A stretch of DNA of 64,000 bases from Ignavibacteriota bacterium (GCA_963727825.1 CAVSHO010000007.1:160001-224000), one strand, 5' to 3'; shown: positions 2,866 through 28,104, counted from the first letter of the stretch. The notes: generated by a model from the sequence alone, not told the origin. Numbers and translations: made by a program.

Positions 2866-5800
2866 ATGAGTTCTCTTCGAGATAATTACAACCAAGGAAA
2901 AGTAGCTGATTTCCTCAAAGAAGTCATCCAGCCGAAATCAAAACTTTCCTTTGTCTCCGCGTATTTTACAATTTATGCCTACAACCAGCTAAAGACGCAA
3001 TTGGATTCCATTGACCATCTGAGGTTCTTATTTGGCGAGCCAACATTTATTAAATCCATTGATCCATCGAAGACAAATTCACGCGAATTCAAAATAGAAG
3101 ATGATCAGCTTATTATACCCATTGAAAGCAGAATGACACAGAAGGCTGTAGCAAAAGATTGTGCTGAATGGATAACAAATAAAGTTGATATCAAATCAAT
3201 GGTAAAGCCTAACTTCCTCCATGGCAAAATGTACCACATCGAGAATCCTAATGGTGTGAAGGAAGCAGTAATGGGGAGCTCGAATTTCACAGTCAATGGA
3301 CTCGGTTTAGCAGGAAGCAACAATATAGAACTAAACATGGTTATTCAAGATCGCAGGGATTTAGAAGACCTTGAGAAATGGTTCGAGAGCTTATGGAACG
3401 ATAAAACAGGATTAGTTGAAGATGTTAAATCAGAGGTACTGAAATATTTAGATCAATTTTATGTTGAGAATGAGCCAGAATTTATTTATTACAAAACCTT
3501 GTATCATCTATTTGAAAAATTTCTTGATGAGCAGGAAAAAGGCGGCTTGCTGAATAAGCAGACAGGTTTCTTTGAGAGTGAAATCTGGAATATGCTGTAC
3601 GACTTCCAGCAAGATGGAGTCAAAGGAGCCATCAATAAAATTCTCAGACATAATGGATGCATCATTGCCGACAGTGTCGGTCTTGGTAAAACTTTTGAGG
3701 CACTGGCTATCATTCAATACTTTGAGAAGTTGAATTATCGGGCATTAGTACTATGCCCTAAGAAATTGAAAGACAATTGGACTGTTTACCAGTCGAGTAA
3801 AAACAACAAACTCAATCCATTCAGAAAGGATCGATACAATTATCACATTCTCTATCATACCGATTTAGGAAGAACATTTGGCATTTCCGATGCAGACGGT
3901 CATGACCTTTCCATCGATAAATTCAATTGGGGTGCCTATGATTTGGTAGTTATTGACGAAAGCCACAATTTCCGTGGTAACCCAATGGAAAAGGTCAGAG
4001 ATGATGGTGAATTGCGGATGAACCGGGCAAAGTGGCTAATGGAAAAAATAATTAAGGAAGGTGTGAGTACAAAAGTTTTATTGCTTTCCGCTACACCGGT
4101 GAATAACAATTTACGCGATTTACGTAATCAGGTATTGCTTATCACGAAAGGTGAAAACGATGCGCTGTTTAAGGACACACAAATTAAGGATATTGAACAA
4201 TCGTTAAAAAACGCGCAAACACAATTCACGAATTGGGCAGATTCTGACAAGAATCCAAATCGAACAGTAAAACAATTATTAGAACGGCTTGACTCTTCAT
4301 TCTTCAAGCTTCTCGATGAGTTGACAATTGCCCGGAGTCGCAAACACATTAAGAGTTTTTACAATATTAAGGCAATTGGGCAATTCTCAGAGCGGTTAAA
4401 GCCCCATTCTATATATCCGAATATAGATATAAAGGATCGCTTTTTTACATACGATTCACTAAATAAAAAAATTCTCGCGTATAAACTGTCAGTGTTCAAT
4501 CCTTCTGCGTATTTGAAAGATGATGAATCCATAAGAGAAAAATATAAAGAACGTGCCGGACAGGAAATCCTTTCATTTACACAGAAAGATCGTGAAAACT
4601 TCCTTATTGGTATGATGAAGGTTAATTATTTGAAACGGCTTGAGAGTTGTATTGAGTCGTTTGAGATTTCAATAGATCGCACAATTAAAAAAATCGAGTC
4701 ACTCAAGGAAAAGATAGATGAATTCAAGAAAAAGAAATTGAAGAACCAGGAAGATGATTTATCTGACGCGCAGCCGGAAGATTCTGAACTAGAGGAAAAT
4801 GCCGATGACCTTGAACAATGGCAAGTCGGTAAAAAATTGAAATTTGATCTTGCTGATCTTGAACTTGATAAATGGTTAATAGATTTGGAGGGCGATAAAG
4901 CGGCTTTATCAGATATCTACAATAATGCGGTCGCTGTTACACCTGATCGTGATGCAAAATTGAAAGAACTCAAGGAGCAGATTGTCTACAAATTAAAACA
5001 TCCTATAAACGGCACCAACAAGAAGATTCTTATTTTTACAGCATTTGCTGATACAGCTGAATATCTCTATAAAAACCTTGAGCCCTGGATTACAAAAGAC
5101 CTCCACCTCCAATGTGCATTAGTCGTCGGAAGTTTTACAAAGACGACTTTTGGAAGAAACGATTTTTCAAACATTCTTACAAACTTTTCACCGCTTTCAA
5201 AGAATAGGGCAAGACTTGAAAAAATGCCACAGGATAATGAGATCGATATCCTCATTGCAACAGACTGCATTAGTGAAGGGCAAAACTTGCAGGATTGTGA
5301 TTATCTCATCAATTATGATATTCACTGGAATCCGGTTCGCATCATCCAGCGATTTGGCCGTATAGATCGTTTAGGTAGCCACAATGACAAAATTCAATTA
5401 GTTAATTTCTGGCCTACGAAGGACCTGGATAATTACATAAATCTGAAAGAGCGCGTTGAAGCTCGAATGGCGCTGGTCGATGTAACGGCTACAGGCGAAG
5501 ACAACATTCTAAATACAGAACAATTGGAAGACCTTATTGAAGAAGACCTGAAATACCGGAATCAGCAGTTGAAGCGTTTGCGTGATGAAGTCCTTGATTT
5601 GGAAGATATGAATGAAAGCATATCATTAACTGACTTTACATTAGACGATTTCCGTGTTGAGCTTTCCAATTACCTTGAGAATAATCGAAAGAAATTAAAG
5701 GACGCACCATTAGGTTTGTATGCAGTCGTTCCATCTCCATCCGGAAACCATGCACAATATTTTAATCTTGATAAATTCTCCGAGGTGGAACGAAAAATTA

Positions 5801-6210
5801 TCAAACCCGGAGTTGTCTATTGCCTTAAACAAAAAGGAGATACGGACGGCAACGAAGAGGTGAATCCATTGCAGCCATACTTCCTCGTCTATATTTGGGA
5901 AGATGGACAAGTGCGGTTCAATTACACTAATGCTAAACAGATTTTAGAAATTTATCGATTGCTCTGCCAAGGGAATATAACAGCATTTCAGCAGCTGTGC
6001 GATCTTTTCAATACAGAAACTGACCATGGCACTCGTATGGAACCCTATGCAGATTTATTAAAAAAAGTCGTTGATGAAATTATTCGTGTGTTCAAGAAAC
6101 GGATAACACAAAGGGTTCTTACAGACAGAGCTGGATTGATTATTCCGCAATCAAAGCAGGTCAATGAAGTGAACAATTTCGAGCTCGTCACTTGGCTGGT
6201 GATTAAATAG
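2866..6210 (+). CDS. Phospholipase D-like nuclease fused to SNF2-family helicase (restriction/defence-associated)
   Basis: N-terminal HGKMY...GSSNFT PLD motif; Walker A DSVGLGKT, DESH box, SAT motif III, SEGQNLQ and QRFGRIDR helicase C-terminal motifs. Confidence 0.9.
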   Translation: MSSLRDNYNQGKVADFLKEVIQPKSKLSFVSAYFTIYAYNQLKTQLDSIDHLRFLFGEPTFIKSIDPSKTNSREFKIEDDQLIIPIESRMTQKAVAKDCAEWITNKVDIKSMVKPNFLHGKMYHIENPNGVKEAVMGSSNFTVNGLGLAGSNNIELNMVIQDRRDLEDLEKWFESLWNDKTGLVEDVKSEVLKYLDQFYVENEPEFIYYKTLYHLFEKFLDEQEKGGLLNKQTGFFESEIWNMLYDFQQDGVKGAINKILRHNGCIIADSVGLGKTFEALAIIQYFEKLNYRALVLCPKKLKDNWTVYQSSKNNKLNPFRKDRYNYHILYHTDLGRTFGISDADGHDLSIDKFNWGAYDLVVIDESHNFRGNPMEKVRDDGELRMNRAKWLMEKIIKEGVSTKVLLLSATPVNNNLRDLRNQVLLITKGENDALFKDTQIKDIEQSLKNAQTQFTNWADSDKNPNRTVKQLLERLDSSFFKLLDELTIARSRKHIKSFYNIKAIGQFSERLKPHSIYPNIDIKDRFFTYDSLNKKILAYKLSVFNPSAYLKDDESIREKYKERAGQEILSFTQKDRENFLIGMMKVNYLKRLESCIESFEISIDRTIKKIESLKEKIDEFKKKKLKNQEDDLSDAQPEDSELEENADDLEQWQVGKKLKFDLADLELDKWLIDLEGDKAALSDIYNNAVAVTPDRDAKLKELKEQIVYKLKHPINGTNKKILIFTAFADTAEYLYKNLEPWITKDLHLQCALVVGSFTKTTFGRNDFSNILTNFSPLSKNRARLEKMPQDNEIDILIATDCISEGQNLQDCDYLINYDIHWNPVRIIQRFGRIDRLGSHNDKIQLVNFWPTKDLDNYINLKERVEARMALVDVTATGEDNILNTEQLEDLIEEDLKYRNQQLKRLRDEVLDLEDMNESISLTDFTLDDFRVELSNYLENNRKKLKDAPLGLYAVVPSPSGNHAQYFNLDKFSEVERKIIKPGVVYCLKQKGDTDGNEEVNPLQPYFLVYIWEDGQVRFNYTNAKQILEIYRLLCQGNITAFQQLCDLFNTETDHGTRMEPYADLLKKVVDEIIRVFKKRITQRVLTDRAGLIIPQSKQVNEVNNFELVTWLVIK

Positions 6211-6352
6211 TCTGAACCATGATTAGAAGGATTAAAGGATTTCCATGATTAAGAATCATGAGTCTGAACTATGATTAGACGGATTAAAGGATGATCTTGA
6301 TTAAATATAATCATGGTCATCGGGTTCATCAAGTAGAATCATGGTTCAGACA
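6209..6352. repeat. Cluster of about 44-bp repeats: two direct copies and one inverted copy
   Basis: 6209-6252 and 6261-6304 match at 38/44; inverted copy at about 6308-6352 ending AATCATGGTTCAGAC. Confidence 0.9.
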
Positions 6353-6794
6353 ACTTTAGGAAACAATCATGCTTTATGAAGATACAACAAAGCGTATTAT
6401 TGCTTCTGCAATGCAAGTGCATTCTACACTCGGAAATGGATTTCAGGAGGTCATCTATCAAAGAGCGCTAGGAATTGAAATGCCTTTACATAATCTATCC
6501 TTTGAGCGCGAAAAGGAAATGCCCATCTTTTATCGGGAACAAGAAATTGGAACACGCAGGGTAGATTTCTTTGTTGAAAATTGCATCATGGTCGAATTGA
6601 AGGCTATTATTGCTCTTGAAGATGTTCACCTTGCGCAGGCTATGAATTACTTAGAAGTATATAATATGGAAATTGGCCTCCTTATTAATTTTGGCGCTAA
6701 AAGCCTTGAATTCAAGCGAGTTCACAATAATAAGCTTCTAAAAAAATAAATAATCCTTAAATCATGTAAATCATGGTCAAATCAAGGTTCAGAC
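6210..6794. mobile_element. Putative IS-like GxxExxY cassette with 15-bp terminal inverted repeats
   Basis: GTCTGAACCATGATT (6210-6224) and AATCAAGGTTCAGAC (6780-6794) are inverted repeats (14/15); AATA on both flanks (6206-6209, 6795-6798). Confidence 0.6.
6369..6749 (+). CDS. GxxExxY protein (PD-(D/E)xK nuclease-like)
   Basis: LGNGFQEVIY signature, RVDFFVE...VELKA, GLLINFG. Confidence 0.92.
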   Translation: MLYEDTTKRIIASAMQVHSTLGNGFQEVIYQRALGIEMPLHNLSFEREKEMPIFYREQEIGTRRVDFFVENCIMVELKAIIALEDVHLAQAMNYLEVYNMEIGLLINFGAKSLEFKRVHNNKLLKK

Positions 6795-6795
6795 A
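6751..6795 (-). repeat. Fourth, inverted copy of the GxxExxY-associated repeat
   Basis: Reverse complement reads TGTCTGAACCTTGATTTGACCATGATTTACATGATTTAAGGATTA, the same family with periodic GATT units. Confidence 0.85.
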
Positions 6796-6798
6796 ATA

Positions 6799-9700
6799 AT
6801 GACAGAAGATATAAGAATAAAAATTCAGAATTCTCTGCAGGCATTCGCTCAAGGTAATTTGACAAAGAACTCACTTGCCTTGTTTGAAACATTGGGGTAT
6901 GTGACCGACCGACAAGCACCATTAGATAAACCAACGTTCGCACAGTTCAAAGAATCTTATATTTCGATAGATTCGCACTTCAATGTAGAAAAGGCACAAG
7001 TAAAACAATGGAAACAAGTTGATCTGTTGTTCCAGCTATCCGGCAATGAAATAATTAAAACAACAGACATGTTTGATTCTAAAGCGGTCGTTACAAAAGA
7101 TGATGGAAATAAAATAGCCATCGAATCGTATTTGTTCTTCGTTGTTGAACTTGATGGTCAAAATTATTCAAGGACTCAGTTTTCGCACATAACGCGCGAG
7201 ATCAATCGCTTGTTTCCTATGCCTGTAATGATACTTTTTAAGTATGGTTCATTTTTGACACTTGCTGTAATAGATCGCCGGTTACACAAACGAGATGCGA
7301 GCAAAGATGTGCTGGAAAAAGTAACGCTGATTAAAGATATATCGATTGCCTCTCCGCATCGTGCACACATCGAAATACTCTTTGATCTCTCGCTTGATGA
7401 ATTGAAGAAGAGCAGCAAAGAACCAATTACTAATTTTATTGCTCTTCACAACGCCTGGCGCAAGACACTCAATATCTCTGAACTTAATAAGAAATTCTAT
7501 CGCCAGATTGCGGACTGGTTCTATTGGGCTGTTTCCAATGTCGAATATCCGCTGGCGCCAAATATTACAAACTGAGCGGGAAAATGCATCTATCAATGTT
7601 ATTCGCCTACTGACACGTATTATTTTCGTCTGGTTTCTCAAGGAAAAAAATCTCGTTCCAGACGATCTTTTTGATGAGAATAAATTAGCTGCAATCCTTA
7701 AAGATGATGACCTGCAAACAGAGAAGAAGTGGAATTATTATCGAGGTATTTTGCAGAATCTGTTCTTCGCTACACTCAATCAAAAAATGAACACAGTAAA
7801 AGAGCCGAATAACCGTGAATGGGTGAGCGATAAAAGAACGTCTTCTGGTTACAACGAAGATTATACCATTGCAAATAAGTATCGCTTTCCTGAGTTGTTC
7901 AAAAATCCGGATCAGGCTCTCCAGCTTTTTTCAAAAATACCATTTCTTAATGGCGGATTGTTCGATTGCCTTGACAGAAGAGGCAACAAACAAAAAGGGG
8001 ATATTTTTATTGATGGTTTTACCCGTCATACAAAACCCCAGCCAAAAGTCCCCAATATGTTATTCTTCGGAAAAAAGCGAAAAGTTGATTTAAGCAAAGT
8101 ATTCGAAGACAAAAAATGGAGCAAAGAAGAAGTCAAGGGACTCATTCATATTCTCAATGACTATAAGTTTACTATTGCTGAAAATACGCCGATTGAAGAG
8201 GAAGTCGCGCTTGATCCTGAATTATTGGGAAGAATTTTCGAAAACCTGCTTGCGGCGTACAATCCTGAAACCGGAACCACTGCCCGCAAAGCAACCGGCA
8301 GTTTTTACACCCCGCGCGAGATTGTGAACTACATGGTGGATGAATCGCTTCTGGCATATTTGAAAAATGCCATGCTGGATGAAGCAGTGGGAGCAGTTTT
8401 AACCGGGCATGAACAGGTTGATGCTTTTGGGAATGACGCAAGAAAGGGGCAATTGAAAATTGAGGATAAAGTTGAGCGTAATCCGTGGAAAGAGAAGGAA
8501 GAGGAGTTAGAAAATCATTTACGCGATCTTTTATCCTATTCTGAGAAACCTAATCCATTGAACATCACTGATACAGACAGACTTATTTCAGCAATTGGCA
8601 GCTGTAAAATCCTCGATCCTGCGTGCGGCTCAGGCGCGTTCCCGATGGGAATGTTGCTGAAAACAGTTCACGTCCTCCATAAGCTCGACCCGAATAATGC
8701 AAAATGGCAGCAAGTGCAGGAAGACGCCGCGCGTAACCATACCCGATCCCGAAATACAGCTGGATACGCTCGCAAGGATTGAAGAAGCGTTCAGCCCGGA
8801 AAACAATTATGCCGATTACGGCAGAAAGCTTGTGCTGATACAAAACTGTATTTACGGAATAGATATACAGCCCATTGCCGTACAGATTTCCAAACTGCGG
8901 TTCTTCATCTCACTGTTAGTGGACCAAAAATACAACGACGCAAAAGAGAACCGCGGAGTGCTTTCTTTACCGAACCTTGAGACCAAATTTGTTGCCGCCA
9001 ATACACTGATCGGTATTGATGAAAGCATACAAGGTTCTTTGCACAACGTCGATATACAGCAGTTGGTTGGGAAATTGCACGATGTGCGAAAACAGATTTT
9101 TAATGCACGCTCATACCGCAATAAAAAGGAATTGCAGAAACAGGACGAACAACTACGTAAACAATTAGGCGCTTTGCTGGAGCAGAAAACGCTGGAAGCG
9201 CAAAAAGTGCTTGAGCAACAGATAGAGACACTTCGAAGTCAAAAAGCGGTAAGCGAAAAAAACTTGAAAGAGAAAAACCTGCTTCCCGGTGTACGCAAAC
9301 AAACCGAGGAGGTAATAAAAAAGATTGATAAACAGGTGGAAGAACTGCAAACGAAGCTGTTGGATAGGCATATTGTAGAAACCAACGCCACACGACTTGC
9401 CGACTGGGATCCGTATGATCAAAATGCTTATGCCGATTACTTTGATAAGGAATGGATGTTTGGAATGCAGAGTGGATTTGATATTGTGATTGGAAATCCA
9501 CCGTATGGAGTTGAAATATCTGAAGGAGAACGATTCTCCTATGAGACCAGAAATATTGAAAGCTATACGAAATGGTCAAAAATTGCTGTCTTGTTTATTG
9601 ACATTGCAAACACATCATTTATTACAAGTCAATGCGACATCGACTCTTTTATTGTTCCAAAATCACTTTGTTATTCGCAGAAAATTGGTCTGAGTGTAGC

Positions 9701-11053: not shown

Positions 11054-11145
11054 TCTTGAAAAGAAACTTGCAGAGATGAAGAAGAAGGCGGCGGAGGAAG
11101 TATCTCGCATGGACGTATAGCGTTACATTCCTATAAATGTTTTTA

Positions 11146-11170
11146 GTCATTCCCGCGTACGCGGGAATCT
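11146..11170 (+). repeat. REP/dRS3-like palindrome, left copy
   Basis: GTCATTCCCGCGTACGCGGGAATCT, containing the ATTCCC-N8/9-GGGAAT type core. Confidence 0.85.
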
Positions 11171-11174
11171 TATT

Positions 11175-11516
11175 ATGAAAATCGACAAAACATATTATGT
11201 ATATATGCTTGCAAGCAAGAAGAACGGTGTCTTATATATTGGAATGACAAATGACCTTGAACGGCGAATTCATGAGCATCGAAGCGGGACCATCGATGGT
11301 TTTACGAGAACATATCACGTGAAGAGACTCGTGTACTATGAACTATTTGAGAAGCCATATGATGCTATTTGCCGTGAGAAAGCAATGAAGAAATGGTACA
11401 GAAAATGGAAGGTCGAATTAATTGAAGATAATAATCCTGAATGGAAAGATTTAATGTCAACTGACGGTACAATCCTCTCGATGGAGGAAGTAAGATACCC
11501 GCTTTCGCGGGTATGA
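11175..11516 (+). CDS. GIY-YIG nuclease (UPF0213/SLX1-like)
   Basis: YYVYML...LYIGMTNDLERRIHEH, AICREKAMKKWYRKWK, NNPEWKDL. Confidence 0.92.
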   Translation: MKIDKTYYVYMLASKKNGVLYIGMTNDLERRIHEHRSGTIDGFTRTYHVKRLVYYELFEKPYDAICREKAMKKWYRKWKVELIEDNNPEWKDLMSTDGTILSMEEVRYPLSRV

Positions 11517-11517
11517 C
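11493..11517 (-). repeat. REP/dRS3-like palindrome, right copy (inverted)
   Basis: Reverse complement GTCATACCCGCGAAAGCGGGTATCT; compensatory T-A to A-T stem change relative to the left copy. Confidence 0.85.
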
Positions 11518-11582
11518 AATAAGAATAGAGAAGGCGGCAGAGGAAGTATCAAATCAGAATAGAGAATCATAAGAGGTTTAAT

Positions 11583-12602
11583 ATGGGTAAAGATTTAACA
11601 ACTTCGAAGATAGACCGGCAAAATATACTGAATAATCCGTATGCTATCGAAGAAGTCAGAATAGCGACCGGAATCTCAGGGATCGTGTTCGAAGGAGAGT
11701 TTAAGTTCTTGAAGGATCAGCTTGCCAAATTCTTTGAAGTTGAACCCAGGACTATTGATAGATATATAGAAAACCAATCGGAAGAACTATCAACAAACGG
11801 ATATGAAGTCTTACGCGGTAACCGATTGAAGGAATTCAAGTTAGCACTGAAATCGGGGGATGTTAACGACATGAATGTCGTTAACAAGGCGCCACAAGTT
11901 GGAGTCTTTAACTTCCGTGCATTCTTAGACTTAGCGATGCTTTTAACCGAAAGTGATCGGGCAAAATCCCTTCGAAGCGTCATTTTGGACATTGTCATAG
12001 ATACGGTCAATAAAAAGACCGGTGGGGGGACCAAATATATCAATCAAAGAGATGAGGACTTTGTCGTCAATTTTCTTCGGGGAGAAGATTATCGCAAAGA
12101 ATTTACCGATGCTTTGCGCGATTATGTTGATATGGGGAAAGCAAAATATCCAATTTATACTGATAAGATCTATAAAAGTATATTTAAAGAAAACTCTCAG
12201 GATTACCGGCAAATTCTGAAGCTTCATAGCAAAGAAAATGTCCGTGAAACAATGTACGCAGAAGTATTACTGCTTATCTCTAGTTTCGAAGTTGGTTTTG
12301 CCGATGTTTTAAGAAAAGAATTTGAAAAATTAAATCGAAAATTAACACCTATCGAAGTGGATAAACTTTTCGCTGATTTTGAATCACAACGTCTTTGGCT
12401 TCCACAGATACAAGATGCCCGGACAAAAATGGCCAGCCGTGATCTTGGATTTAGAGAAGCATTGCATATCCGCCTGAAAGAATACATTAATGCTATTCCA
12501 CCTACAGATTTTGAGAGGTTTCTTGGAGAAAAGAGCAAGGATCTTTCTGCCAGATTGGAGGAAATGTCCGAGGTATTCAAACGCCTGAAAGACAGACAAT
12601 GA
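11583..12602 (+). CDS. DNA-binding protein (RhuM/DinD-like), putative partner of Doc
   Basis: HTH-like LAKFFEVEPRTIDRYI; ATGA overlap with the Fic/Doc gene. Confidence 0.65.
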   Translation: MGKDLTTSKIDRQNILNNPYAIEEVRIATGISGIVFEGEFKFLKDQLAKFFEVEPRTIDRYIENQSEELSTNGYEVLRGNRLKEFKLALKSGDVNDMNVVNKAPQVGVFNFRAFLDLAMLLTESDRAKSLRSVILDIVIDTVNKKTGGGTKYINQRDEDFVVNFLRGEDYRKEFTDALRDYVDMGKAKYPIYTDKIYKSIFKENSQDYRQILKLHSKENVRETMYAEVLLLISSFEVGFADVLRKEFEKLNRKLTPIEVDKLFADFESQRLWLPQIQDARTKMASRDLGFREALHIRLKEYINAIPPTDFERFLGEKSKDLSARLEEMSEVFKRLKDRQ

Positions 12603-13045
12603 ATGTTGTTTACATCGATATTGATCAGGCGATTGAAACGCATCGATTAACCGTCCAAGTAAGTGGCGGCGGTCTATTATCAGTTATTGATGCCGGTAAA
12701 TTGGAAAGTGTTCTCGCACATATTCAAAACGATGACTACTATCCCTCTTTTGTTGATAAATTGACTCACTTAGTTTTTTCGGCCAACAAATTCCATTGTT
12801 TTTCTGATGGAAATAAAAGAATAGCTATCTCGCTTGGTGCTCAGTTTCTTCTTTTAAACGGCTATGTATTTATCGCACGCCGGTTTATTCAAGAAATGGA
12901 AAATATCAGTTATCACGTAGCAGCAGGAAAGATTGATAAAGATTTTCTCAAGGAAATAATCACTTCCATCATTTATGAACCGGACTATCCAGAAGATCTA
13001 AAATTAAAAATATACGATGCGATAAAAGACGATGTAAATCCTTAG
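12599..13045 (+). CDS. Fic/Doc family toxin
   Basis: HCFSDGNKRIA is a Doc-type HxFxDGNKR motif. Confidence 0.9.
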   Translation: MNVVYIDIDQAIETHRLTVQVSGGGLLSVIDAGKLESVLAHIQNDDYYPSFVDKLTHLVFSANKFHCFSDGNKRIAISLGAQFLLLNGYVFIARRFIQEMENISYHVAAGKIDKDFLKEIITSIIYEPDYPEDLKLKIYDAIKDDVNP

Positions 13046-13242: not shown

Positions 13243-13343
13243 TCACCCACTCCACCTATACCATCATATCCCGCATCAACAACGGCGAGTTGTTATAGAT
13301 GAATTGTGGCTGTCGAAAAGATAGATATATGAAAGGAAAAACT

Positions 13344-14174
13344 ATGAAGAAGAAAATATTTATCGGCATCGGAATAGCAGTGCTTGTCGTACTCATAAGC
13401 GCAGTTATCATATTCTATCCTATGATCCGCTTTATGACACAGAAAGAAATTATCCAGATCGATCCAAACCTGACTTTGGTTATGGGTGGTGGCGGCAACA
13501 GCGGCATTGTCTTAGGCGATAGCGCTGTTGTTGTTATCGATACAAAGATGATGAGTCCTTCTGAAGACCTATACAAACTTGCAAAGGAAAAGGCGGGTCA
13601 GAAACCTATTATCGTAATCAACACACATTATCATAAAGATCACGTAAGTGGAAATAAGTTCTATAAGGGAAGCAGAATCTATATCGGGAGTTATGAAAAA
13701 GATTTTATCCAGAAAAATGTTGATGCAGAGAATCAACCAACAGATTTTGTGAAGGACAGTCTATTGATTGATCTTGGCAATGAGAAAGTGCATCTGTATA
13801 ACATTGGCCAGGGTCATACGATGAATGATCTTGTAGTCTATCTATCAAACCATCGTATCTTGTTCACCGGAGATTTAGTTTTCAATCGAATTAATCCTGT
13901 ATTAAAGAAAGAGAGCGGGGCAAATGTACTTCGTTGGATAGGTTTATTGGATACAATTTTAAATCGCTGGGGAGATAGTAAAATTGTTCCTGGGCACGGT
14001 CAGGTGGGTAATAAAGAAATAGTGGCTTCTATGCGCCAATATTTTGTTGATATGATAGCCGCTGTAACAGACCCGAGTAAAATGGACAAATATAAAGATT
14101 GGATGACTATGCCGAATATGGCATCGCCGGAAAAGACGATCGAGTATATAAAGGGCTCTGAAATAAAAAAATGA
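13344..14174 (+). CDS. Metallo-beta-lactamase-fold hydrolase, membrane-anchored
   Basis: THYHKDH, GHT, GDL and PGHG motifs; N-terminal TM; start chosen at MKKKIF after AAGGA. Confidence 0.85.
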   Translation: MKKKIFIGIGIAVLVVLISAVIIFYPMIRFMTQKEIIQIDPNLTLVMGGGGNSGIVLGDSAVVVIDTKMMSPSEDLYKLAKEKAGQKPIIVINTHYHKDHVSGNKFYKGSRIYIGSYEKDFIQKNVDAENQPTDFVKDSLLIDLGNEKVHLYNIGQGHTMNDLVVYLSNHRILFTGDLVFNRINPVLKKESGANVLRWIGLLDTILNRWGDSKIVPGHGQVGNKEIVASMRQYFVDMIAAVTDPSKMDKYKDWMTMPNMASPEKTIEYIKGSEIKK

Positions 14175-25798: not shown

Positions 25799-26700
25799 AT
25801 GGCAACGCTTCGAGAAATCCGACGCCGTGTGACAAGTGTTAAGAGCACGCAAAAAATTACTAAAGCCATGAAAATGGTTGCCGCTGCGAAGCTGCGCCGT
25901 GCGCAGGAAGCACTTATCTCGACGCGTCCCTATGCCCGCAAGATGAACGAGTTGCTTAGACATCTTGTCACTAAAGTTGATCTATCCATTCATCCATTAT
26001 TGCAAGAACGAGAAGTCAAACGAGTTGTGTTGGTAGTAGTCTCAGGTGATCGAGGGAATGTGCGGAGCATTCAACGGAAATATTGTCAAAGCCGCAATCG
26101 ATTATTTGAATACCCATTATTCAAATTTATTGAAAGAGCCAGACGGTGTCCGCATTGTTACGGTTGGGAAAAAGGCGACCGACTTCTTCTTGAAGAAAAA
26201 TTATAACCTATATGCGAAATACACAGGTTTATTTGGGAACCTTCACATTGGTCACGCAAGAACGATCATTCAACAATTGATAGACGATTACCTAACGGGT
26301 AAATTCGATAAAGTTGAAATTATATATAATGAATTTAAGTCGGTTATTCAGCAACGAATCATTGTCGAGCAGATCTTGCCGATTCCGCCAGAACAAATTC
26401 AGAAGACAAAAGATATCCATGCGCTCGCTCAAGTGGATTATATTTATGAACCGTCGAGCATTGAAATTATAAATGTGCTTGCTGCCAAAACATCTGAATT
26501 TTCTGATGTGGCATGTTTTGCTGGAATCCAGCACCGCCGAAGAAGGGGCGCGAATGACAGCGATGAACAATGCTACTGAGAATGCAAAAGAACTTATTCG
26601 TGATCTAACATTGTCTTACAACAAAGCACGGCAGGCAAGCATAACAAAGGAGTTACTTGAGATTGTCAGCGGAGCAGAAGCACTGAAAAAAGCAAGTTAA
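25799..26700 (+). CDS. atpG: ATP synthase gamma subunit (two frameshifts, likely errors)
   Basis: [24 protein letters not shown] and [12 protein letters not shown] spread over three ORF pieces. Confidence 0.95.
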
Positions 26701-26813: not shown

Positions 26814-28104
26814 ATGGCAGTCACGCCGCAACAGCCAAACCAACCGCGCCCAATGTCTGGGCAAGGGCAGCAACGTATTTCATTGGAACAGATCGATGTG
26901 CAAACGCTATCAAAGGATAAAATCCGTGATATGTTCCGTCAAGGTAAACTTCCAACCGCCGATCAGATTGTTGAAGAAATTCTGGTCCGAGGTGTTCAGG
27001 CGAATGCGAATGATATCCATTTTGAACCGATTGAAGGGGAGATGCAAATTCGGTTAGGGTATGAAGGAACGCTCAAACGTTTGGTCTCTCTCCCGCTTGA
27101 TATGAACGATCCTATGATTAGTGTGCTGAAATCGAAAGCAACCCTTAATCAATTTGAAAAAAAGAAACCTCAAGAAGGACGTTTCTCGGCGGTCTACGGA
27201 AATGAACCGCTTGATTTTCGAGTAAACGTGATTCCTGTGCTTTCAGGCGAACGATGTCTGGTTCGATTGTTGCGCAAGACTGCAAGTATCTCCCGAATCG
27301 AAGAACTTGGATTCAGCAAAGAAAATCTTGAGCGGCTAAGGGTATTGCTTCGCAGCCCTCAGAGGGTTGGTGTTAATCACAGGGCCATCGGGGAGCGGCA
27401 AATCGACAACAGTTTATGCCGCTGTGAACTATGTGGCGAATCCGGAAAAATGCGTGATTACTGTTGAAGATCCGGTTGAGTATCGACTGCCATATGCAAG
27501 CCAAGTGCATTTGCCTCCTGATAAGTCATTTAACTTCATTGATGCGCTCAGGGCGATCCTTCGACAGAATCCAAACATTATTATGATTGGTGAAATCCGC
27601 GATGCGGAAACCGGCATTGTTGCAGGCGAAGCTGCACTCACAGGTAATCTTGTGCTTAGTTCCATGCTTGCTGATGATGCGATTGGTGCGATTCACCGTC
27701 TCCTCAATCTTGGTGTACCAGCATATTGGCTCGCTTCAACAGTTGTTGGAGTTGTGTATCAACTTTTAATCCGTAAAATTTGTCCTAATTGCAGAGAAGA
27801 ATACTTGCTCTCGCCAGAAGAACTTCAATTAATTGGCGCTCCAATGGAATCATCCGATCTTAAACTGTTCCGTGGCCGCGGTTGTCCTAATTGCTTGGGT
27901 ACGGGTTATAAAGGTCGAATAGCAATTAGTGAAATTGTGACAATTAGCCCGAAGTTGCGGGATATGATCTTTGAAAAAGCATCGATCCTGAATATGCGAG
28001 AAGAAGCTGCCAATTTCGGCTTCCAAGGTATCCGGCAGGATGCGATTCGTAAAGCGATTACTGGCATAACAACTCTGCAAGAAATTACGCGTGTGCTTGG
28101 TTAG
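26814..28104 (+). CDS. GspE/PilB-family ATPase (frameshift near 27362)
   Basis: DIHFEP, PQEGR, GPSGSGKS, VEDPVEY, GEIRD, CxxC...CxxC; His box altered. Confidence 0.9.

Follow-up and report, generated by a model that had tools for sequence, protein, structure and literature searches.

What is the small GxxExxY gene, bracketed by inverted repeats, that lies between a helicase gene and a methyltransferase gene of an Ignavibacteriota bacterium, and can the segment that carries it move? The 64,000-nt stretch of DNA analysed here (referred to as the window) contains this segment as a 585-base cassette at positions 6210-6794, comprised of four repeat arms and one intact GxxExxY (PF13366) gene. A first reading, made from the sequence alone, had described it as a discrete, transposase-free unit with an insertion footprint. 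The features of the locus are presented in Table 1.

Table 1. Features of the cassette and of the flanking host genes (positions in the window).
Feature	Position	Strand	Basis
Upstream host gene, HKD (PLD) nuclease + Snf2 helicase, 1114 aa	2866..6210	+	PADLOC C3a139 HKD+Snf2, E 1.7e-133
Left flank AAATA	6205..6209		last helicase codon + TA of stop; fits family consensus AAAwT
Outer left arm L1	6210..6259	+	terminal 15-mer 6210-6224; nhmmer 6207-6250, E 1.5e-8
Second direct arm L2	6262..6311	+	terminal 15-mer 6262-6276; profile 6262-6303, E 1.9e-6
Inverted arm R1	6297..6351	-	15-mer 6337-6351; profile 6355-6332, E 3.3e-4
GxxExxY / PDDEXK_3 gene, 126 aa	6369..6749	+	family-model scores + motif residues
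Outer right arm R2	6750..6794	-	15-mer 6780-6794; profile 6797-6778, E 1.1e-3, and 6777-6751, E 2.1e-3
Right flank AATA	6795..6798		first three bases AAT = family consensus
Downstream host gene, type IIG-like methyltransferase	6799..9602	+	DUF4391-like N-terminus + N6_Mtase + Eco57I

The terminal inverted repeats of the cassette match at 14 of 15 positions. A sequence scan with the left terminal 15-mer, GTCTGAACCATGATT, located a direct copy in L2 (1 mismatch) and its reverse complement in R1 (0 mismatches, i.e. perfectly complementary to the terminus of L1) and R2 (1 mismatch). By our own arithmetic, about 0.006 matches with up to one mismatch are expected by chance on both strands of 64 kb; the four observed, all inside 585 bp, are far beyond chance. 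The GATT units of L1 start at 6221, 6230, 6238 and 6247, L2 shares 82% identity with L1 over 51 nt, and the interior of R2 contains AATC units. Together, L1, L2 and R1 form a hairpin-like block 5′ of the gene (DNA fold −24.9 kcal/mol, z −6.1). An arm profile derived from 260 arms in other genomes, with the window left out, recovered all four arms (E 1.5e-8 to ~1e-3) and no second cassette copy or further arm in the 64-kb window below E = 2.9. The inverted repeats, the four repeat copies and the GATT periodicity had thus been placed correctly in the sequence-only reading, and the search for further copies that it proposed, run on the 64-kb window, returned just these four arms.

The identification of the GxxExxY gene was equally sound, its product scoring above the curated cut-offs of both TIGR04256 (134.7 bits, cut-off 35) and PF13366 (129.3 bits, cut-off 22). 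The eponymous motif is G-F-Q-E27-V-I-Y30, and E27, Y30, E37, D66 and E76-x-K78 may be read as a PD-(D/E)xK active site; Y30 and E37 are invariant in 55 sequences, while E27, D66 and K78 are conserved in at least 90%. Enzymes of the PD-(D/E)xK type hydrolyse DNA, frequently as dimers. Pfam side-matches of the relatives to Cas4 (7 of 55), SfsA (3) and Phage_endo_I (2), all with E >0.004, were rejected as too weak, and the comparison with solved structures gave no sequence match (profile matches at E 0.63 or worse only). The gene appears to be maintained under strong purifying selection, judging from a dN/dS of about 0.12 and the absence of internal stops in 84 of 85 genes; synonymous sites of the family are saturated, yet the arms are conserved. 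Neither a promoter-like site (+ strand) nor a terminator-like site was found around the gene. It is the sole ORF of the cassette, in which no transposase family was detected, and no match to the HUH Y1 transposase model (Y1_Tnp, PF01797) was found in the window protein or 55 relatives.

We compared 81 loci, i.e. the window and the best 80 relatives of its protein (65-86% aa identity). The sequence GTCTGAACNNTGATT is found beside close GxxExxY relatives in Bacteroidota, Chloroflexota, Ignavibacteriota, Patescibacteria and others; some of these phylum labels may be wrong, since numerous loci come from metagenome bins. With up to 2 mismatches allowed in its 13 fixed positions, the arm motif is present on both sides of the gene in 51 of the 81 loci, and 75 loci have it on one side or more, against a chance rate, by our own arithmetic, of ~0.009 per 800-nt flank. 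When window positions 5900-7100 were compared with the 80 loci (blastn), there was zero similarity before 6197 or after 6822; the alignments begin exactly at 6210 in 25 cases and at 6205 in 8, and 7 end at 6797. Similarity thus begins near 6205-6210 and stops near 6794-6797. Delimited in this way, the conserved block of the window spans ~6205-6797, with sharp ends, and it recurs in unrelated gene contexts across phyla, which bears out the discrete unit of gene plus repeats. Gene-bearing cassettes measure ~470-670 bp, with an arm-gene-arm layout in 20 of 52 elements; in one of them (L070) the two arms are identical at ~38 of 39 positions (counted by eye from the sequences). Four loci (L024, L060, L063 and L078) hold several gene-bearing copies. 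We also found 61 gene-less arm pairs, mostly 80-129 nt, that resemble hairpins of ~90 nt. Where adjacent arms lie 251-1500 bp apart, a GxxExxY gene is the sole cargo (27 of 27 pairs), in keeping with the earlier link of the repeats to these genes. No DNA or protein match to the cassette was obtained among 50,697 phage records.

The cassettes occupy junctions of co-oriented operon genes: the upstream neighbour is on the same strand in 64 of 73 cases and the downstream neighbour in 70 of 78. A long ORF ends between −12 and +30 of the arm start in 70 of 134 "+" arms, compared with 5.4% of random positions; these ORF ends peak at the TGA codons within the arm itself, and at least two frames are closed within 33 nt in 230 of 265 arms. 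A reading frame that runs inward into an arm is thus closed after no more than a few codons; in L1 this applies to every one of the three frames (TA|G at 6208-6210, TGA at 6213-6215 and 6220-6222, TAG at 6224-6226). The start codon of the next gene is often found a few bases past the right end of the cassette. A Shine-Dalgarno role of the right-arm AAGG was considered and rejected, there being no clear enrichment in a rough comparison of 18 of 41 start-followed arms (AAGG, AGGG and GAGG counted) with 32 of 92 others (AAGG and AGGG counted). Neighbouring genes include restriction-modification genes in 32 of 80 loci, as well as thiC/thiD, ilvC, leuC/D/B, glnA, dnaG, fabD/fabG and radA.

In the window, the helicase gene stops with TAG, whose G (base 6210) is the first base of the cassette. 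The protein ends in ...LVIK, with the same end residue in 119 of 120 homologues, and the N-terminus of the methyltransferase aligns with those of its homologues. The cassette therefore leaves the native helicase stop and the native methyltransferase start intact, in agreement with the first reading. The latter was also right in calling the downstream gene a methyltransferase, though the gene is broken by two frameshifts into three frames (6799-7572, 7565-8734 and 8736-9602); the last 355 residues of its closest homologue have no match in the window. Some methyltransferase homologues contain Y1_Tnp or DUF559 domains. The small nuclease is probably a passenger and not a subunit of the helicase-methyltransferase system.

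Differences in cassette content were observed at the leuC-leuD junction. A 550-bp cassette separates these genes in a Mucilaginibacter strain (L048), a congener (L043) has an unrelated 58-nt spacer and no cassette, and a third locus (L072) has a 77-nt gene-less arm. As the same junction is occupied or empty in related genomes, the cassettes are gained or lost as units. This is the single empty site found; the orthologues are ~63% identical, and the cassette does not simply interrupt the gene tail and spacer but takes their place. No recent movement was visible among the most similar gene pairs (≤89% nt identity). Their flanks match in sequence or their neighbours belong to the same gene families, so that they look like shared, not separate, insertions, which suggests that inheritance with the host operon is common.

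We consider, with moderate confidence, that window 6210-6794 is a copy of a large, undescribed family of selfish, repeat-bounded nuclease cassettes, whose mobility we infer. We also infer that the nuclease itself moves the cassette: the arms would be DNA sites rather than RNA stems, and the encoded nuclease, probably as a dimer, would recognise them and cut at or near them. Spread would proceed by homing-like break-and-repair copying, not by strand transfer of the transposase type, which would account for the missing target duplication (see below). The window copy would be a passenger in a helicase-methyltransferase defence operon, with both gene ends intact. More tentatively, a new class of mobile elements may rely on GxxExxY proteins as their only enzyme; in these, a dimeric nuclease would recognise and cut a palindromic two-arm GATT landing pad, and a gene-bearing copy would serve as the repair template. 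The arms of a gene-bearing copy would then be the same pad, split by the gene, and the homing targets of the element would be gene-less derivatives of itself that lie at operon junctions, with no transposase and no duplication.

Alternatively, the arms might be MITE- or REP-like repeats moved in trans by an IS200/IS605-type Y1 transposase, a RAYT or a tyrosine recombinase, with the GxxExxY protein as a passenger or accessory, e.g. a retention or addiction nuclease. We regard this as unlikely, although several observations fit it. Gene-less hairpins are common, the lack of target duplication resembles single-strand hairpin transposition, and we know of no PD-(D/E)xK nuclease that performs strand transfer alone, nor of any PD-(D/E)xK protein that is the only enzyme of a transposon. 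One element (L019) is preceded, at a distance of 75 nt, by a Y1_Tnp gene, and Y1_Tnp or DUF559 domains occur, as mentioned, in methyltransferase homologues. However, Y1 transposase genes are upstream neighbours in only 1 of 72 loci scanned, a helper enzyme would be needed in many phyla, and no cargo other than GxxExxY was seen. The sequence-only reading had proposed that repeat families be compared with GxxExxY clades, and unit type does follow protein clade: in a clade made up of L043, L048 and L067 (support 89), each of the eight GATT units has become GAATT, and elements with the CAGATT unit also form a clade (support 98). A search for specificity residues in the GAATT clade yielded no fixed protein change but Y3F; base-specific reading of the units by the GxxExxY protein is therefore not supported, and the switch from GATT to GAATT, tracked by no protein residue, is compatible with a helper enzyme. 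Distant GxxExxY genes have other bracketing repeats, of 30 nt in Bacteroides finegoldii and 28 nt in Bernardetia (0 of 500 shuffles match either), whereas a significant bracketing repeat within 130 nt was absent in 4 of 7 distant plasmid-borne homologues.

Still less probable, in our judgement, is an immobile unit, in which the arms are cis signals (RNA processing or stability stems, or autoregulatory operators) and the gene is a defence-operon accessory that travels only with its neighbours. The shared surroundings of the closest pairs, the purifying selection, the frequency of restriction-modification neighbours, the lack of a promoter-like site in a cassette co-oriented with the operon, and the ability of the terminal 13 bp to pair are all consistent with such a role. 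On the other hand, thiC, ilvC, leuCDB, glnA, dnaG and fabD/G have no common function, similarity stops sharply at the arms, presence and absence differ inside one genus, and arms also occur without the gene. An arm opens with the terminal repeat (T)GTCTGAAC, after which come about four GATT units 8-9 nt apart, starting at arm positions 12, 21, 29-30 and 38-39 (264 arms); three or more GATT units in both 55-nt arms were found in 34 of 52 elements, versus a background of 1.2%. The spacers between GATT units are no more complementary to those of their own partner arm (0.43) than to those of other partners (0.41), and G.T mismatches (35) balance A.C mismatches (42), i.e. there is no wobble bias and no strand bias. 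RNAalifold retained the terminal 9+4 bp alone, with almost no covariation (term +0.13). No Rfam family matched window positions 5500-7500 at E ≤1, and the relatives gave sub-threshold miRNA-type matches only, on one perfect hairpin in 7 loci. The RNA-structure reading was rejected on these grounds, the tests favouring the arms as putative DNA sites.

The insertion footprint proposed in the sequence-only reading did not hold. AATA is present at 6206-6209 and 6795-6798, and equals the consensus flanks of the family (right flank A in 44, A in 35 and T in 30 of 51 elements). Among the 51 elements with both flanks readable, tabulated as that reading had suggested, matches of at least 3 bp occurred in 17.6%, compared with 14.1% when flanks were paired across loci; trying three boundary offsets gave no signal of target duplication, and the flank analysis revealed no defined target sequence. 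The AATA footprint is not beyond chance, and a 4-bp duplication is largely refuted at the level of the family. The restored TAATG junction, the other part of that claim, is plausible. Among four distant cassette-free homologous systems, one (Shewanella, L091) has TAATG, and the others have an ATGA overlap, TAA, three nucleotides and ATG, and a 30-nt gap, respectively. As the 4-bp duplication is no family feature, TAATG is one of two equally simple reconstructions of the pre-insertion junction, the duplication-free one being TAA, three bases and ATG. A classical insertion sequence that duplicated AATA at a former TAATG junction, for which the two AATA copies and the Shewanella junction speak, is thus highly improbable, given the flank statistics, the consensus nature of AATA, the three differing junctions and the lack of a detected transposase family.

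GxxExxY/PDDEXK_3 proteins are very common and among the most abundant small "unknown" bacterial nucleases: 13,415 representative clusters (50% identity) match the family at E ≤0.001, and it is entered as unknown in a 2012 survey listing PD-(D/E)XK families (PMC3424549). The word GxxExxY is scarce in the literature searched, in which, outside subscription journals, no description of this cassette family was found. If correct, the proposed reading accounts for the position of GxxExxY genes inside restriction-modification, leu/ilv, fab and other operons, gives annotators a rule for spotting the cassette and its gene-less hairpins, and offers a two-part system (a 126-aa nuclease and a ~45-nt arm) for testing a possibly new form of DNA movement. 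It also bears on the interpretation of defence islands, in that the small nuclease here is probably a passenger.

The cassettes share traits with several known systems. Like integron cassettes, they are small, have no detectable promoter and place a stop codon within a flanking imperfect palindrome, and the arm ends read ...AAC / GTT..., as in attC core sites. Unlike integron cassettes, they form no arrays, the scanned window ORFs (up to ~30 kb) include no match to an integrase-like family, and the gene may sit inside the palindrome (arm-gene-arm), which is at odds with cutting of a cassette at G|TT; the attC reading was rejected on this layout.

Terminal inverted repeats, short gene-less derivatives and low-polarity insertion into operons are reminiscent of insertion sequences and of MITEs, such as the Correia and Chunjie elements. 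Insertion sequences differ in having a target duplication and a recognised transposase, and the gene-bearing form of the cassette is small (~470-670 bp). Gene-less hairpins exist (61, mostly of 80-129 nt); the window copy is coding and single in 64 kb. With IS200/IS605 elements and their palindrome-associated derivatives, the cassettes share the lack of duplication, hairpin ends around a small gene and conserved flank bases; they differ in that their ends are inverted copies of each other, without TnpA/TnpB and without strand bias of mismatches.

As with free-standing homing endonuclease genes, a small nuclease gene is inserted between conserved genes without duplication, and break-and-repair copying driven by the nuclease is plausible. 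The cassettes, however, occupy many unrelated junctions, and homing endonuclease genes, to our knowledge, have no conserved inverted repeats with periodic units at their borders and leave no gene-less hairpins. REP/RAYT systems with REPINs also consist of a small gene between inverted short repeats, copies of which both flank the gene and occur dispersed, and of gene-less, intergenic hairpin doublets. The differences lie in the protein, which is a PD-(D/E)xK nuclease (PF13366) and not an HUH/Y1 enzyme, in the periodic GATT units of the arms, in the possibility of several gene-bearing copies per locus, and in the single cassette of the 64-kb window. The comparison with RAYT/REPIN systems or MITEs, already drawn in the sequence-only reading, is nevertheless apt in form, because gene-less two-arm hairpins exist.

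The GxxExxY cassette of the window is a conserved one-gene unit with sharp boundaries and flanking repeats. It occurs at operon junctions; gene-less derivatives exist, related genomes differ in whether they carry it, and no target duplication is seen. The sequence-only reading had described it accurately: the repeat copies, the flanking AATA and the single GxxExxY gene were all recovered. The cassette consists of two direct arms (a terminal repeat followed by approximately four GATT units), one inverted arm, the GxxExxY gene and another inverted arm. The encoded protein of 126 aa carries the motif residues E27, Y30, E37, D66 and E76-x-K78; in a 2012 survey of PD-(D/E)XK proteins, PDDEXK_3 is listed as being of unknown function (PMC3424549). 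Neither promoter-like sites on the + strand nor terminator-like sites were detected in 5900-7100. All four arms of the window were recovered by a profile derived from 260 arms found in other genomes, which detected nothing further below E = 2.9 in the 64 kb.

Features of the GxxExxY cassette and of neighbouring regions of the window
Feature	Position	Orientation or remark
HKD (PLD) nuclease + Snf2 helicase ORF	2866-6210	terminates in TAG
AATA, left flank	6206-6209	
Terminal repeat GTCTGAACCATGATT	6210-6224	direct
Terminal-repeat copy, one mismatch	6262-6276	direct
Terminal-repeat copy, exact	6337-6351	reverse complement
GxxExxY / PDDEXK_3 ORF	6369-6749	
Terminal-repeat copy, one mismatch	6780-6794	reverse complement
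AATA, right flank	6795-6798	
ATG after right flank	6799	
Methyltransferase, split into overlapping ORFs	6799-9602	frame changes near 7565-7572 and 8734-8736
Second small nuclease cassette	11083-11550	3' of methyltransferase
22-nt direct repeat (95%)	11083-11104 and 11529-11550	brackets GIY-YIG gene
GIY-YIG gene, 113 aa	11175-11516	PF01541, E 4e-17
Doc/Fic family toxin gene	12599-13045	TIGR01550, 40.6 bits (cut-off 38.65)
Metallo-hydrolase-fold ORF	13299-14174	
ATP synthase gamma and GspE/PilB-type ATPase, likewise split	25799-26579; 26814-28104	

The GxxExxY family comprises 13,415 representative clusters at 50% identity. Among 8,000 scored relatives of the window protein, the best 120 share 79-100% identity with it (the first being the protein itself), and their named sources are Chloroflexota, Bacteroidota, Ignavibacteriota, Desulfuromonadaceae and Bacillota. 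We compared the loci of the best 80 of 595 confirmed relatives (65-86% identity), searching 800 nt on either side of the gene for arms and allowing up to 2 mismatches in the 13 fixed positions of the motif. Arms were present on both sides in 51 of 81 loci (window counted), upstream only in 16, downstream only in 8 and on neither side in 6, some loci stopping at a contig edge that limits the visible arms. The proposed tie between the repeats and the GxxExxY gene thus holds across phyla. In blastn comparisons of window 5900-7100 with the 80 loci, no similarity was found before 6197 or after 6822; 25 alignments begin exactly at 6210, 8 begin at 6205 and 7 stop at 6797. By these positions, the shared unit is the segment 6210-6794 together with at most five flanking bases on its left side and three on its right.

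Arm conservation begins abruptly at the G of GTCTGAAC. In 264 arms the GATT units start at positions 12, 21, 29-30 and 38-39, with spacings of 8 or 9 nt predominating. Three or more units are present in each of the two 55-nt arms of 34 of 52 elements, versus 1.2% of random 55-mers. An arm-gene-arm layout is found in 20 of the 52 elements (470-818 bp), whose arms may be long, near-perfect inverted repeats (approximately 38 of 39 positions identical in locus L070, by our own count). The second layout, to which the window cassette belongs, consists of a gene between two arm pairs, or of mixtures. All 27 adjacent arm pairs lying 251-1500 bp apart enclose a GxxExxY gene and no other cargo. A further 61 arm pairs, no more than 250 bp apart and mostly measuring 80-129 nt, enclose no gene and bear out the suggested likeness in form to RAYT/REPIN or MITE systems. 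One gene-less hairpin of 143 nt (8050-8192 of locus L011) lies in frame within a 434-aa ORF (7488-8792), the stop-free frame spanning the hairpin. Some cassettes look decayed, with truncated second GxxExxY copies (34-76 residues matched) near full ones (L027, 8460-8561; L055, 762-989; L080, 4620-4724).

The two arms of a pair resemble each other more than arms of other loci, in gene-bearing pairs (13.74 of 15 positions alike for the own partner vs 12.30 across loci) as well as in gene-less ones (13.08 vs 12.50). A functional RNA fold fits these data poorly. Position 10 of the terminal repeat is mismatched in most pairs, the spacers between GATT units show no complementarity (0.43 vs 0.41), and G.T and A.C mismatches are evenly represented (35 vs 42), i.e. 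there is no wobble bias. When RNAalifold was applied to 23 hairpins, the terminal 9+4 pairs were all that it retained (covariation term +0.13), and no Rfam family matched. The data agree with arms composed of a terminal inverted repeat and, after it, periodic protein-binding units; similar ends occur in known transposons.

The sequence-only reading had also suggested testing GxxExxY clades for covariation with repeat families, and covariation is seen at the level of clades. In three loci (L043, L048 and L067), which form one clade (support 89), GAATT replaces GATT in all eight units, and CAGATT-type units are likewise confined to one clade (support 98). Among seven plasmid-borne homologues of 27-63% identity, in which repeats were sought within 130 nt, those of Bacteroides finegoldii (30 nt) and Bernardetia (28 nt) have strong bracketing repeats of different, CACAGAG-type units (0/500 shuffles each); the repeat of a Treponema homologue is borderline (13/500 shuffles), and four of the seven lack one within that distance. 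At the level of residues, the sole fixed change of the GAATT clade is Y3F, which counts against direct reading of the units by the GxxExxY protein. Tandem fusions of two GxxExxY domains (250-277 aa), present in 14 of the best 150 representatives, hint that the protein may work as a dimer.

The nearest neighbours are mostly encoded on the same strand as the GxxExxY gene (64 of 73 upstream, 70 of 78 downstream). A long ORF ends at -12 to +30 of the arm start in 70 of 134 '+' arms, versus 5.4% at random positions, and the peaks of ORF ends are the arm's own TGA codons at +6 (23 cases) and +13 (13 cases). When arms are read inward, at least two frames are closed within 33 nt in 230 of 265 (control 31%), and all three in 93 of 265 (control 2.2%). 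In 30 of 52 elements an ATG, most commonly as AATG, is found no further than 15 nt from the right end. A Pfam scan that covered 72 of 73 upstream neighbours and 75 of 78 downstream ones (excluding the two of the window and two short minus-strand ORFs) revealed restriction-modification domains in 26 and 18 of them, respectively, i.e. in 32 of 80 loci. The remaining neighbours include thiC/thiD, ilvC, leuC, leuD, leuB, glnA, dnaG, ruvX, glycosyltransferases, Abi_2 and Roc-COR proteins. Distant members on annotated plasmid records have the same placement: fabD-[GxxExxY]-fabG in Sphingomonas, and immediately 3' of radA in B. finegoldii.

In the window, the G of the helicase stop codon is base 1 of the repeat. 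The helicase gene was assigned to C3a139 by PADLOC, and the downstream ORF codes for the N-terminal part of a methyltransferase. Homologues of this methyltransferase mostly measure 1,150-1,350 aa and comprise a DUF4391-like part and N6_Mtase, Eco57I and TaqI_C domains. Both host genes had been considered intact beside the cassette, and their adjoining ends are indeed native: among the matches listed, 119 of 120 helicase homologues stop at this very residue (...L(V/I)IK or a close variant), and the methyltransferase N-terminus lines up with those of its homologues. Further downstream the methyltransferase is spread over three frames, its last part without a match; the split genes of the window are either assembly indel errors or pseudogenes. 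The two nearest relatives of the helicase (98% and 94% identical) and of the GxxExxY protein (92% and 94%) lie on contigs of the same sizes, 61,053 and 10,980 bp, so close relatives probably carry the same insertion.

Four cassette-free homologous systems were examined, all distant (33-37% identity), and their junctions differ: TAATG in Shewanella, an ATGA overlap in Bacillus cereus, TAA + 3 nt + ATG in Weissella and a 30-nt gap in Planktothrix. Tight coupling of helicase and methyltransferase is thus typical. The TAATG that the sequence-only reading restored by removing the cassette with one AATA therefore has a counterpart in one system; the other three differ, and a reconstruction without duplication (TAA, three bases, ATG) is equally ordinary. 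In ten methyltransferase homologues (P0452, P0456, P0458, P0460, P0461, P0471; P0429, P0446, P0453, P0476), an IS200-type Y1_Tnp (PF01797) or a DUF559 Vsr-like endonuclease domain (PF04480) lies within the same predicted protein, which suggests that other small selfish genes may occupy gene ends in this operon. The GIY-YIG gene beyond the methyltransferase has short GC-rich palindromes immediately 5' of its start and at its end. The metallo-hydrolase-fold ORF scores far under the beta-lactamase cut-offs (97 vs 200 bits).

The AATA duplication itself is not upheld. Flank matches of at least 3 bp occur in 17.6% of 51 elements, versus 14.1% for left flanks combined with right flanks of other loci, and boundaries moved by 1 or 2 bases gave no better signal. 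The left flank consensus is A, A, A, A/T, T (-1 is T in 37 of 51) and the right one A, A, T (44, 35 and 30 of 51). AATA...AATA simply fits this consensus, and is thus no evidence of duplication.

When each element's flanks were compared against the remaining loci, one clear empty site emerged. In L048 (a Mucilaginibacter bin), a cassette of 550 bp separates leuC from leuD; at this junction L043 (Mucilaginibacter sp. X4EP1), with flanking proteins approximately 63% identical, has an unrelated 58-nt spacer. The leuC frame of L048 extends 27 nt into the arm and the cassette adjoins the leuD ATG; the cassette thus replaces the gene tail and spacer and does not simply interrupt them. In L072 (a Chitinophagales bin; 4285-7106), three successive leu junctions are occupied, by a 77-nt gene-less arm (leuC/leuD), a full cassette (after leuD) and a gene-less arm array of approximately 580 bp (after leuB); L041 has a full cassette 3' of leuB.

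The dN/dS of the GxxExxY gene is approximately 0.12 (0.062 for the closest pair), with finite estimates in only 58 of 600 random pairs and synonymous sites saturated (median dS 2.07); 84 of 85 genes are free of internal stops. Conservation of the arms where synonymous sites are saturated argues that the arms are also under selection. A quick tree places the window protein with four Chloroflexota sequences (support 86, under the star threshold), although its host looks like Ignavibacteriales, and phylum labels change 14 times (minimum 8). This suggests transfer, but the labels of bins may be wrong. Housekeeping proteins encoded in the window cluster at ≥90% with bins that bear the names Bacteroidota and Ignavibacteriales. 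Gene pairs of the highest similarity (up to 89% nt) have either flank sequences that match or neighbours from the same gene families, and so no recent movement was seen.

We propose that the arms are DNA sites on which the nuclease would act. PD-(D/E)xK enzymes hydrolyse DNA, and because no duplication arises, the cassette may spread by cutting followed by repair copying, and not by strand transfer. The target would be the gene-less two-arm hairpin. In the gene-bearing copy the gene would interrupt this site, so that the copy would escape cutting and could act as template for repair. As the main rival explanation, a different enzyme would move the cassette and the nuclease would be a passenger.

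No description of a repeat-bounded GxxExxY element was found in the literature searched with family names and arm 8-mers. The nearest analogues are REP/RAYT systems with REPINs, IS/MITE pairs, IS200/IS605 elements, free-standing homing endonuclease genes and integron cassettes; the cassette departs from every one of them in at least one defining feature.
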